DNA of 64,000 bases from Escherichia coli. GTDB lineage: Bacteria; Pseudomonadota; Gammaproteobacteria; Enterobacterales; Enterobacteriaceae. The DNA is taken from the NCBI RefSeq assembly GCF_016903815.1, contig NZ_CP069973.1; one strand, written 5' to 3'. Both the position numbers and the translations under genes were made by a program. Numbering within the stretch: the first letter of the stretch is position 1; every line of letters starts with the position of its first letter. Of the stretch, positions 53,582-57,100 are shown one piece after another. The notes beneath the pieces are model-generated. The model did no database searches. It had not been told where the DNA came from and saw only the letters and a list, made by a program, of their open reading frames with translations.

Positions 53582-54115
53582 CTATTTAAATAACTTTAGA
53601 ATATCTAATTTTTCTTGATTGAGGTCTAATATTTCCAATGTCGAAAGTTCCCTACTCAAAGAAAAACCAAATCTTATATTCCTATTAATGATATAACAAA
53701 TGGGATTTGTTGCTTTTTTAAATAATAATTTAATGTAATTACTACCAATTATTAACTTGATATTGCAATCAAAATCATCAATAAATCTGTTTGAGTATTC
53801 GGAAATGTCTTTATTAAGCCACTCGCTTGTCTGAAATATAACAGACCCTTGTATTTCAGGAAGGTTGTTGGCTAACATCTCATCTGTAATGTTAATTTCA
53901 CCTGAATCGATATTTGCTAGTGTGATGTTACTTACTTCTCCGCTGTACATATTTAACCCAACTTCAACCAAAGAACTTTTACCATTGCCGCCTCTCCAGT
54001 ACAAACACTGTTCGCTCCCCTTTCCAAAAGTTATATCAAAAGGTACAAATTCATCTATATTAACAACAACATCTTTGTAGTTTGTTTCATTTTCTAATGT
54101 AAGCATAATCGTCAT
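53582..54115 (-). CDS. Putative cognate immunity protein of the prePAAR-Rhs toxin
   Basis: 177-aa low-GC ORF whose ATG overlaps the Rhs stop (ATGA, 54112-54115). Confidence 0.55.
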   Translation of the reverse strand: MTIMLTLENETNYKDVVVNIDEFVPFDITFGKGSEQCLYWRGGNGKSSLVEVGLNMYSGEVSNITLANIDSGEINITDEMLANNLPEIQGSVIFQTSEWLNKDISEYSNRFIDDFDCNIKLIIGSNYIKLLFKKATNPICYIINRNIRFGFSLSRELSTLEILDLNQEKLDILKLFK

Positions 54116-57100
54116 TTATAAAGAGCATGTTTAATAACTGATAAAGCCGAGTCAGATTTAGCTTGACTAAATACTAGTTCCCAGCCGCCAACATTCATCA
54201 TTTCTTCATACTTTATACCTTGAGCACTAGCCAAACTTACAGCTTCGTGAAAACTTGTTAACATTATTTGGCTCTCTACAGAAGTTGAATGTGAGAGACC
54301 GTTCCGAGTCAAATATTCAGCCATATGTTTTGTAGCATTTGGGTGTACCCAGAAAGTACCATTAGCAGTTATAATCTCAAAAGATTTTGGGATAGAGGTG
54401 CCAGGGATAGCAGATTGAGTTGCCTTGATAAAATCATAGATATTTTTCTTACCAAAATTAGATGCAGCCCTTGCTGCCCGACTGGCTTCAAGGTTAGCCA
54501 GCACCCGTTGTCTGATTATGGGACATGTTGCTAATCCCAAAGGATCAACATACCCACACGGATTCGGCACATACCGGTAAGTCTGCTCACCCCCCAGCAA
54601 CCCCAGCGGATCACTCACCAGGTACATCCCTGTTTCCGGCTCGTAATACCGGAACCGGTTATAGCACAGCCCGGATTCCGCATCCTGCCACTGTCCTGCA
54701 TACAGCAGGCCGGGGTCGGCTTCCGCGTCCAGTTCCCCGCGCGGGTCCGGGTAGCCGGTGTCTGCGGGCAGGCTGAGTGCCAGCCCCCACAGGCTGGTCT
54801 GCCCCGGTCGCCAGACGGTTTTACCTTCACTGTTAAAGAGCATCAGCGGACGGCCCGTCAGGTCGCTCACCGCATGATTCGTCCGCGTCACCCACTGCGG
54901 GGCCACGGACGGATGCGGCTGCCGTACCCGGCTGCACTGCTGGCTTATCAGCTCAAAGCCGTTAAACACCAGGTGCCGTACGCTGTACAGTTTATCATCG
55001 CGGTATTCCCGGATTTCCGCAATACTGTCGCCGTCCCACAGGTACGTGATGCGGATTTTCTTCCGGTCGCAGCGTTTTTCCGTCCGTCTGCCGCTGGCGT
55101 CGTGGCGGTATTCCCACTGTTCACCCTGTGCGCTGCAATACCCGGTCAGCTGGTCACGGCTGTCCCACCGGAACCGCTCTGTTTCCGGGCGGTAGCCGTC
55201 ACGGTGTTTTATGCGGCTGACCATCCGGCCTGCGGCGTCATAGTCATACTGCGTGTTTCCGGCCTGTTTCAGCCGGTGGCCTCCGGCATACAGGTCAGTC
55301 TCTTCACTTATCTGGTGCCTGCCCGCAGACTGCGCCTTCAGGTAGCCGCAGCTGTCATAGCCATAAGTCTCGTCGCCTTCGCCATAGCCCAGCCCGGTGC
55401 CTGAGGCTGTCACCGCCGTGACCTGGCCGTTCCGGTCCAGCCGGTACTCCCGGCGAGTTTCCCGTCCGTAATCTTCCCGGCTGGTGACAGCCGACACATT
55501 ACCCGCGCTGTCGTAACGGTACTCCCGTACCAGTGAGGGGAGCAGTCCGCCCCATGTGGCTTCCGCCGGGAAAAATCCGGCGCGCTGGCTGGTAAGCTGA
55601 CCGGCTGCATTCCAGCCCTGTTCACAGGCAAAACCCCGGTTACTGTGCCGGAGCACTTCACGTCCTGCCTCATCACGGCTGAACGTCAGCGTCTCATCCC
55701 CCGGCAGGATAACCTCCGTCAGTTCTCCGGCGGCGTTGTAGCGGTAGGTGGTTTTCAGCAGGGATTCACCGGGGTGTCTGTCGTGTTCATCTTCCGGTGG
55801 CAGGATACAGCGGATGACGGTGTGTTCGTCGGGGTAGTGGTACTCAATGCCCCGTCGGCCCTGAGTGGTGACATTCACCCGCCCGCGTTCGTCATAGCCG
55901 GTGCGCTGTGATATGCCGTCCGGGCTGAAGATACCCGTCAGCCTGCCGGATTTGTCATACGCATACTGCGTTTTGCCTTCCGGCGTGATGACTTCTGCCA
56001 GGCGGCCTGCGGCGTCCCGGCTGTAGAGGATGGTTTCCTCCAGACCGTTAACCCTGGCGGTACACAGGCCATCGGCATCATAACGGTAACGCCAGACCAC
56101 GCCGCCCCAGTCGCGCTCTTCCGTCACCCGGCCACAGTTGTCCAGAAGATAACGGTATGACTCGCCCTGCGGATTGATGACTTCTGTCAGTTGCAGCGTG
56201 TCTTTATCGTAGCGGTACTGCCAGCGGTGGCCTTCACCGTCCGTTCGCGCCACCGGCAAATCAAACGGGCCGTACTCCATTGTCCAGACAACACCGTTAC
56301 CGTCCGTGTACGCCAGCAGGTTGCCGTGACGGTCGTAGCGGAATCCTTCCGCGCCGGTGCCAGTGCGCTCAAGGCCGCTCAGTTTATGGTGCTGCTGCCA
56401 CTGTAACCGCACTGACTGACCGCCGGGGCCGCGCATCTTCACCGGCAGGTCGTGACCGCTGTATTCGGTGTGGTGTTCACGGCCCATCACGTCGGTGAGT
56501 GTTTCCGGCCGGTTGTGGTGGTCGTACTCTATGCCCAGACGCCGTTCATCCTGGCGGAATATCCCCGACAGCAGCCCCTGAGCGGTATACGCCAGCCGGG
56601 TCTCTTCGCCCTGTGGCGACACCAGGCTTACCGGCAGGCCGCGTTCATCGCACTGCTGCGTCCACGTCTGCCCGGCAGGGTCGGTGATGTTGCTGAGCAG
56701 GCCGCGCTCATCATAGCGGTACTACCACTCCACGCCGTCTGCCGCCGTGTAACGGCTTAACTGACCGTGTGCGGCGGCGTATTCAAATTTCTCCACCCGT
56801 CCGGCAGGGGAGTGGCGGGCCAGCAGGTGATGGAATTCATCCCATTCATACGTGATGGTGCTGCCGTCCGGCGCTTCTTCCCGCAGAATATTGCCGTCAG
56901 GATCATAGTAATAACGGTGAGTGCCCTTGCCGTCCGTCACGGTGGTGCAGCCGTCCCCATAGTCCAGCGTGGCGTTGTAATAGCCTTCCGCCCCGGTGAC
57001 GGTCACGCACCGGCCCTGTGCATCGTAGGTGAAACGGCTCCACGTCTGGTCGTTATCGGACCAGCGGATGATCCGGTCCGCAGCGTCGTACTCATAAAAC

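Follow-up and report, generated by a model that had tools for sequence, protein, structure and literature searches.

What does the C-terminal end of the main rhs gene encode in a 64,000-nucleotide stretch of the Escherichia coli chromosome (RefSeq contig NZ_CP069973.1; hereafter the window), and does the short open reading frame (ORF) that follows it belong to the same system? A first-pass annotation, made from the sequence alone, had proposed the two as a candidate for a novel effector-immunity pair whose toxin falls in no recognized family. We consider it very probable that they are instead the cassette of a type VI secretion system (T6SS) prePAAR-Rhs effector, made up of an EC869-type tRNase and a CdiI-like immunity protein, and that the carrier gene is broken by an amber codon in the window. 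The pair adds an Rhs-borne member to a known, structurally characterized toxin-immunity family and sits in an ordinary polymorphic rhs locus. The features on which this answer depends are the following.

54112..58941, minus strand: main rhs gene, 1609 codons in one frame with a single internal stop, a pseudogene in the window
54115..54447, minus strand: toxin domain, 111 residues, predicted from homology and a structural model to be an EC869-type BECR-fold tRNase
53582..54115, minus strand: immunity gene, a homolog of the CdiI EC869 gene; 177 residues from an ATG that overlaps the toxin stop codon (ATGA), or 174 residues from the ATG at 54106

The minus-strand ORF that ends at 54112 contains, exactly as quoted in the first-pass annotation, the C-terminal peptide ...PNPCGYVDPLGLATCPIIRQRVLANLEASRAARAASNFGKKNIYDF...HALYK*. 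In a phmmer search of the PDB the toxin matched 7vmc_B, 'tRNA nuclease CdiA', with E=8.1e-41, and its nuclease domain is identical to the C-terminal toxin of CdiA (CdiA-CT) from EC869 at 72 of 109 residues (66%). The entry 7VMC is a crystal structure in which the CdiA-CT:CdiI complex of enterohemorrhagic E. coli EC869 is bound to EF-Tu (Wang et al. 2022 NAR; PMC9071432). CdiA-CT EC869 is an experimentally studied BECR-fold tRNase that cuts tRNA acceptor stems on an EF-Tu/EF-Ts/GTP scaffold, and EF-Tu, EF-Ts, and GTP promote this cleavage (PMC9071432). The product of the downstream ORF matched the other chain of the same complex, 7vmc_C, 'Contact-dependent inhibitor I' (phmmer against the PDB, E=3.4e-18), and it aligns over its full length with CdiI EC869 at 31% identity, sharing the conserved motif LYWRGG(D/N)GK. 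By BLASTP, the toxin matches the C-terminus of CdiA encoded in an O157:H7 genome (E=5e-49) and the immunity protein matches the CdiI encoded beside that cdiA gene (E=4e-21, 35% identity).

The view that this is a novel effector-immunity pair of an unrecognized toxin family is refuted for both partners by these matches, and we give it next to no chance of being correct. What speaks for it is that neither partner has a Pfam or NCBIfam model: the two libraries place no family on the toxin domain and are silent on the immunity protein, which is a 'hypothetical protein' in RefSeq. It is because of this gap, and because the match is not visible by eye, that the family had gone unrecognized. Against it stand the matches of the two partners to the two chains of a complex that has been solved and studied biochemically (E=8e-41 for the toxin and E=3e-18 for the immunity protein), and the independent BLASTP matches to a genomic cdiA/cdiI locus argue that the 7VMC matches are not an artifact. 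When the toxin, the immunity protein and 63 homologs were scanned with Pfam, the sole match on the toxin domain was to LisH_2 (E=0.1), which we dismissed as due to chance.

A structure prediction bears on the same question. The AlphaFold2 model of the toxin, built on the family alignment, has a mean pLDDT of 89.4 and an order of elements (E-E-E, H, H, E-E-E) that is the same as described for the crystal structure. The predicted fold corresponds to the BECR fold, that is, two three-stranded antiparallel sheets with two flanking helices. In a Foldseek search with this model 7vmc_B came first (E=1e-14, TM score 0.95 on the target, root-mean-square deviation 1.4 Å), and below it there were only weak matches to RelE/ParE-type proteins and to CdiA-CT Kp342 (6cp9_E). 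The close superposition on a characterized nuclease is a further argument against an unrecognized family, as is the conservation of the residues that have been implicated in toxicity or in contact with EF-Tu.

These residues can be placed precisely because the PDB chain numbering of 7VMC equals the numbering of PMC9071432 plus 21, a relation that was verified on five residues. CdiA-CT EC869 touches domain II of EF-Tu through Tyr220, Leu221, Gln235, Met237, and Tyr284, of which Gln235 contacts Glu259 of EF-Tu, and its toxicity is lowered by the substitutions H216A, H281A, and R271A or by deletion of the C-terminal 5 residues (PMC9071432). All five contact residues are identical in the window toxin, and Gln235 is invariant in the 63-sequence family alignment. 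Both implicated histidines are identical as well. Residue mapping places their codons as follows.

54325..54327, minus strand: His codon equivalent to His216 of CdiA-CT EC869, in ATKHM; invariant in 63/63 homologs
54127..54129, minus strand: His codon equivalent to His281 of CdiA-CT EC869, in KHALYK; invariant in 63/63 homologs

Does the downstream ORF belong to this toxin? The first-pass annotation had based the coupling of the two genes on an ATGA overlap. The overlap is present in the sequence, where the ATG of the 177-residue ORF overlaps the TGA stop of the toxin, and it hinges on the start codon chosen, since RefSeq uses the second ATG (54106, 174 residues), which leaves a 5-nucleotide gap to the toxin gene. 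The upstream ATG is at least conserved, as the Escherichia fergusonii homolog also reads MTTML... The coupling itself holds, as a homolog of CdiI EC869 lies directly downstream of the toxin and each of the two, at ≥99% identity, occurs in the same number of complete E. coli genomes (135 out of 5426). This conservation, together with the match to a solved immunity protein at E=3e-18, leads us to conclude that 53582..54115 is a real gene. The RefSeq entry for its shorter form, WP_001370340.1 (53582..54106), goes by 'hypothetical protein' in some records, for the most part those whose accessions have lower numbers, and elsewhere by 'RNA-binding protein', a label that does not fit a CdiI-like immunity protein.

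Some observations weigh against our assignment. Arg263 of EC869 is replaced by Gly in the window toxin, and the pairwise alignment sets Ala opposite Arg271, with Lys one residue on; in the 63-sequence alignment this Lys sits in the Arg271 column, which holds Arg in 52/63 sequences and Lys in 6/63. The window toxin lacks the cytoplasm-entry domain, which makes up some 160 N-terminal residues in CdiA-CT, the homology starting at about residue 161-164. Neither candidate start of the immunity gene is preceded by a Shine-Dalgarno sequence that is obvious by eye, and a promoter and terminator scan of positions 53300-54700 gave no promoter-like site upstream of this gene within the toxin region and nothing above shuffled expectation that bears on its expression. 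With only about 31-35% identity between the immunity proteins, cross-protection with CdiI EC869 is unlikely. Finally, at 66% identity of the nuclease domain, the choice of substrate or the dependence on cofactors could differ.

This last point can be taken further. The toxin might share the fold and ancestry of EC869 and have diverged in activity, acting on another tRNA or RNA, cutting at another site, or working independently of EF-Tu/EF-Ts. One third of the nuclease-domain residues do differ, including the Arg263 to Gly replacement and the shifted basic residue at Arg271, and the immunity protein is down to about 33% identity. Furthermore, related BECR-fold CdiA toxins vary in substrate and cofactor, and EC3006 needs neither EF-Tu nor EF-Ts (PMC9071432). 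We nevertheless regard such a divergence as unlikely given that the five named EF-Tu contacts and both implicated histidines are identical, that the residue contacting Glu259 of EF-Tu is invariant across the family, and that R263A has little effect in EC869 (PMC9071432).

If the toxin and its immunity protein are of the EC869 type, how was the cassette joined to an rhs gene? The orphan rhs C-terminal fragment (rhs-CT) at 50245..50943 of the window, described below, helps to define the boundary. The main rhs gene and this orphan are 94.5% identical in nucleotide sequence over 54775 to 54448 and are unrelated thereafter. The shared stretch spans the DPLGL motif at the end of the Rhs core and a linker common to different rhs-CTs.

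54532-54561, minus strand: core-end autoproteolysis motif PCGYVDPLGL (PxxxxDPxGL); the TIGR03696 (Rhs_assc_core) match stops at its final leucine, in the second DPLGL
54448..54531, minus strand: 28-residue linker ATCPIIRQRVLANLEASRAARAASNFGK, defined by nucleotide identity to the orphan rhs-CT; a helix is predicted for residues 4-24 (pLDDT about 75)

Since the linker is common to the orphan rhs-CT, the variable toxin module starts only past NFGK (54447), and since two unrelated toxins share the linker, the recombination boundary is NFGK and not DPxGL. The pattern ATCPI[I/L]RQ..L.NLEASRAARAASNFGK precedes the two unrelated toxin domains, at 54448-54531 and at 50587-50670 (both on the minus strand). 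Other alleles at the locus have breakpoints at several positions between about 54560 and 54511. The G+C content drops along the locus, with values of 0.61 (rhs core), 0.37 (toxin), and 0.31 (immunity gene), as expected for an imported cassette. In some other strains (e.g., strain 4621), another main rhs gene comes first and the same cassette follows it as an orphan with a truncated N-terminus. A cassette that is the main C-terminus in the window and an orphan in strain 4621 shows the classic pattern of C-terminal displacement.

The carrier has the parts of a T6SS effector. Its frame contains PAAR, YD-repeat, RHS-core and Rhs-associated core domains (NCBIfam TIGR01643, NF041261, TIGR03696), with the PAAR match at residues 263-305, and Pfam PAAR_motif and faint prePAAR_I matches were found on rhs alleles, including the allele in genome L009. 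The prePAAR motif is defined as AARxxDxxxH. Two N-terminal features were read from the translation, and the codon that interrupts the frame is given with them.

58753..58782, minus strand: prePAAR motif AARLGDEIQH, residues 54-63
58615-58746, minus strand: hydrophobic transmembrane-domain region, residues 66-109, after the prePAAR motif
56722-56724, minus strand: in-frame amber codon TAG at codon 740 (gag tgg TAG tac; GVEW*YRYDERG)

The toxin is carried by an Rhs protein, has no VENN motif ahead of it in the window translation and lacks the cytoplasm-entry domain; thus its carrier is not a CdiA, though the nuclease domain is shared. The genes for VgrG and for an Eag chaperone (DUF1795/DcrB) adjoin rhs, as expected for a T6SS prePAAR-Rhs effector, and all three frames are on the minus strand of the window. 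Eag/DcrB-family proteins act as chaperones for prePAAR effectors.

59450..61351, minus strand: vgrG, encoding the T6SS spike protein, at the head of the island (NCBIfam TIGR03361 VI_Rhs_Vgr, E=1e-187; RefSeq 'type VI secretion system tip protein VgrG')
58961..59422, minus strand: DcrB/DUF1795-family (Eag-type) chaperone gene (Pfam DcrB, E=1.7e-27; RefSeq 'DcrB-related protein')

The uninterrupted frame from delivery part to toxin that a prePAAR-Rhs effector is expected to have fails in the window at the TAG of codon 740, which cuts the Rhs protein short beyond its PAAR/transmembrane part. The toxin is thereby separated from the part needed for delivery and is probably not delivered in this strain. 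The same codon is CAG (Gln) in L008 (CP164635.1) and L006 (CP101305.1), both of which encode an intact 1609-residue protein with the same toxin; the former differs from the window rhs gene at 3 nucleotides in all, and the latter is more divergent. In a sample spread over the genome ranking, perfect matches to 54112-56800, TAG included, reach down to about rank 83, so that at least about 83 complete genomes share the TAG allele, and RefSeq calls the gene a pseudogene ('internal stop') in an identical genome. The window rhs gene is a pseudogene of a T6SS prePAAR-Rhs effector of which intact alleles exist elsewhere, and the immunity gene is intact despite the broken carrier.

One could suppose that the toxin is still made despite the amber codon, by internal initiation or readthrough, and acts inside the cell with its immunity protein in the manner of a toxin-antitoxin module. 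An ORF of 836 residues, starting from a GTG at 56622, is open downstream of the TAG, and in other E. coli the cassette also occurs in orphan fragments that are truncated at the N-terminus. There is a precedent in a Salmonella orphan rhs element that lacks the delivery part and is reported to work as a type II toxin-antitoxin module (PMC7043789). We hold this possibility to be very improbable, since no ribosome-binding-site or promoter evidence was found for such a product and orphan rhs-CTs are generally seen as silent cassettes (PMC3150448).

We therefore return to the reading of the locus as a broken T6SS effector gene with an EC869-type cassette. The homology of both proteins, the predicted fold, the residue conservation, the gene order with its Rhs-VgrG-Eag context and the nonsense codon are computed directly. 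By analogy with the characterized EC869 homolog and from general knowledge of Rhs proteins and the T6SS, we infer the delivery of the toxin by the T6SS, its autoproteolytic release, its dependence on EF-Tu/EF-Ts, its tRNase activity and the identity of its substrates, and its neutralization by the immunity protein, which would occlude the active site. In the mechanism that we propose, the Rhs protein of an intact allele would be loaded on VgrG with the help of the Eag (DcrB-family) chaperone, shot into a neighboring cell and cleaved after PxxxxDPxGL, which would release a 139-residue fragment consisting of the 28-residue helical linker and the 111-residue nuclease domain. The nuclease domain would most likely bind domain II of the EF-Tu of the target cell and, on the EF-Tu:GTP:EF-Ts scaffold, would cut the 3' acceptor stem of particular tRNAs, so that translation stops. 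The cognate immunity protein of 174 or 177 residues, presumably with a beta-sandwich fold, would cover the active-site face. In the strain of the window the toxin is probably undelivered, and the intact immunity gene may still give protection from kin whose rhs allele is unbroken.

The remainder of the locus is consistent with an island in which such cassettes come and go. Strain 7/2 carries an identical locus, which lies between cusS and nfrB, and many complete E. coli genomes match 53400-54620 at 100% identity. The RefSeq annotation of the locus in this strain comprises vgrG, genes for a protein related to DcrB and for a hypothetical protein, an RHS pseudogene ('internal stop'), several small ORFs, a fragment of a PAAR gene and one of an orphan RHS gene, and genes for a DUF4304 protein and an ISAs1 transposase. 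In the window, the features downstream of the immunity gene are as follows.

52659..53102, 51832..52047, and 50973..51341, minus strand: small low-G+C ORFs of 147, 71, and 122 residues, between the cassettes
51473-51772, minus strand: PAAR-domain fragment, a near copy of positions 57925-58224 of the main rhs gene; a partial PAAR pseudogene in RefSeq
50245..50943, minus strand: orphan rhs-CT, which shares the NFGK-ending linker with the main rhs gene
49676..50233, minus strand: DUF4304 ORF after the orphan rhs-CT, presumably its immunity gene
48159..49295, minus strand: ISAs1-family (H-repeat) transposase at the end of the rhs island, an arrangement known from classical E. coli rhs elements

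The PAAR fragment is a relic of an earlier rearrangement. The three small ORFs, none of which has a match in Pfam (nor, for those of 147 and 122 residues, in NCBIfam), probably encode orphan immunity proteins whose toxins have been lost. The toxin part of the orphan rhs-CT, past NFGK, has no match in Pfam, NCBIfam or the PDB; a stretch 'IDVVD...IESK' within it is similar to a PD-(D/E)xK nuclease motif. Outside the rhs island, no T6SS cluster is evident in the ORF listings of the window, where the ORFs were taken without a family-library search. At the border of the island, nfrB (45724..47961, minus strand), the gene of the c-di-GMP-activated glycosyltransferase involved in phage N4 adsorption, is interrupted at codon 376 by an in-frame stop (46834-46836) that RefSeq also notes as 'internal stop' in the identical strain 7/2.

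How far does the toxin family extend? Besides the 135 E. coli genomes with the window cassette, 35 further genomes carry a 70%-identical version in cdiA, which RefSeq names 'contact-dependent inhibition effector tRNA nuclease'. A word-indexed protein search gave 24 short-fragment matches for the toxin and 4 clusters for the immunity protein and was uninformative on distribution, so an exhaustive phmmer search was used instead. Among 1.84 billion cluster representatives, it matched the toxin domain to 616 proteins at E≤0.001 (each standing for a cluster at 50% identity), 367 of them at E≤1e-10. In the best 150 of the 616 matches the domain lies at the C-terminus or within a few residues of it, in proteins of about 100 to 3400 residues. 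Pfam scans of 62 homologs found N-terminal carriers with RHS repeats, PT-VENN with TPS and hemagglutinin repeats, PT-TG, PT-HINT, LXG, a type VII secretion system (T7SS) signal domain, an eCIS core, DUF4280 and Phage_Mu_F, and placed the toxin domain itself under no family. This distribution is the standard signature of a widespread polymorphic-toxin cassette.

It is possible, and we suggest it tentatively, that a fuller account of these data is a large family of EC869-type, EF-Tu-scaffolded tRNases that reaches beyond contact-dependent inhibition, comprising 616 clusters across Rhs/T6SS, CdiA, LXG/T7SS, PT-HINT, eCIS and other carriers and including Gram-positives, in which the Rhs version may have a distinct tRNA specificity and the amber allele has kept its immunity gene. 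Were this so, the distinct specificity would be tied to the change of Arg263 to Gly, the change of Arg271 to Ala-Lys and the ~33%-identical immunity protein, and the frequent amber allele with retained immunity would represent a lineage that keeps the shield and loses the sword.

For want of a Pfam or NCBIfam model, the annotation of 135 complete E. coli genomes labels the toxin only as 'RHS repeat-associated core domain-containing protein' and its immunity protein only as 'hypothetical protein' or, oddly, as 'RNA-binding protein'. The main value of the present result would be to correct this annotation, as the match points to a specific function, that of an EF-Tu-dependent tRNase delivered by the T6SS. 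The result also gives a clear example, from within one species, of a nuclease cassette that is exchanged between delivery systems of type V (CdiA) and type VI (Rhs). It opens no new class of biology.

The closest known system is CdiA-CT/CdiI of E. coli O157:H7 EC869 (Jones et al. 2017 PNAS, as cited in PMC9071432). The window pair resembles it in a homologous nuclease domain (66% identity) with the BECR fold, predicted here, the histidine pair and the EF-Tu contacts, and in a homologous immunity gene directly downstream with a tight junction; at the O157:H7 cdiA/cdiI junction stop and start abut with a 1-nucleotide overlap (TAATG), whereas the window has either ATGA or a 5-nucleotide gap. The two differ in their carriers, a type V CdiA filament there and a T6SS prePAAR-Rhs protein in the window, and the window toxin has the 28-residue Rhs linker in place of VENN and the cytoplasm-entry domain. 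Moreover, the window immunity protein is only about 31-35% identical to CdiI EC869, so that its specificity is probably distinct, and the window carrier gene is inactivated.

More distant relatives help to place the toxin. CdiA-CT NC101 and CdiA-CT Kp342 have the BECR fold and cleave tRNA in the acceptor stem with EF-Tu domain II as a scaffold (PMC9071432). They belong to the same fold class as the window toxin, and Kp342 (6cp9_E) is a weak structural match to its model, but there is no detectable sequence similarity and the immunity proteins are unrelated; they are analogs in fold class and not members of the same family. In the Rhs2-SciX system of Salmonella Typhimurium, an Rhs protein carries a BECR-fold toxin that binds EF-Tu and has an immunity protein of its own (bioRxiv preprint 10.64898/2026.05.10.723254). 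Compared by description, it is a precedent for T6SS Rhs delivery of this toxin class; it differs in that the Rhs2 toxin is closest to another CdiA-CT (5T86) and in that Asp and His residues are implicated.

Since the work of Poole et al. (2011; PMC3150448), it has been known that some Rhs-CTs have sequence in common with CdiA-CTs; Table S1 of that work lists no pair of EC869-main and Rhs. The rhs loci described in that study have the same components as the window locus, namely a main rhs gene followed by rhsI, by orphan modules of CT and immunity genes, and by an ISAs1 (H-repeat) element. Nothing essential differs, and the window locus is a typical example of this kind.

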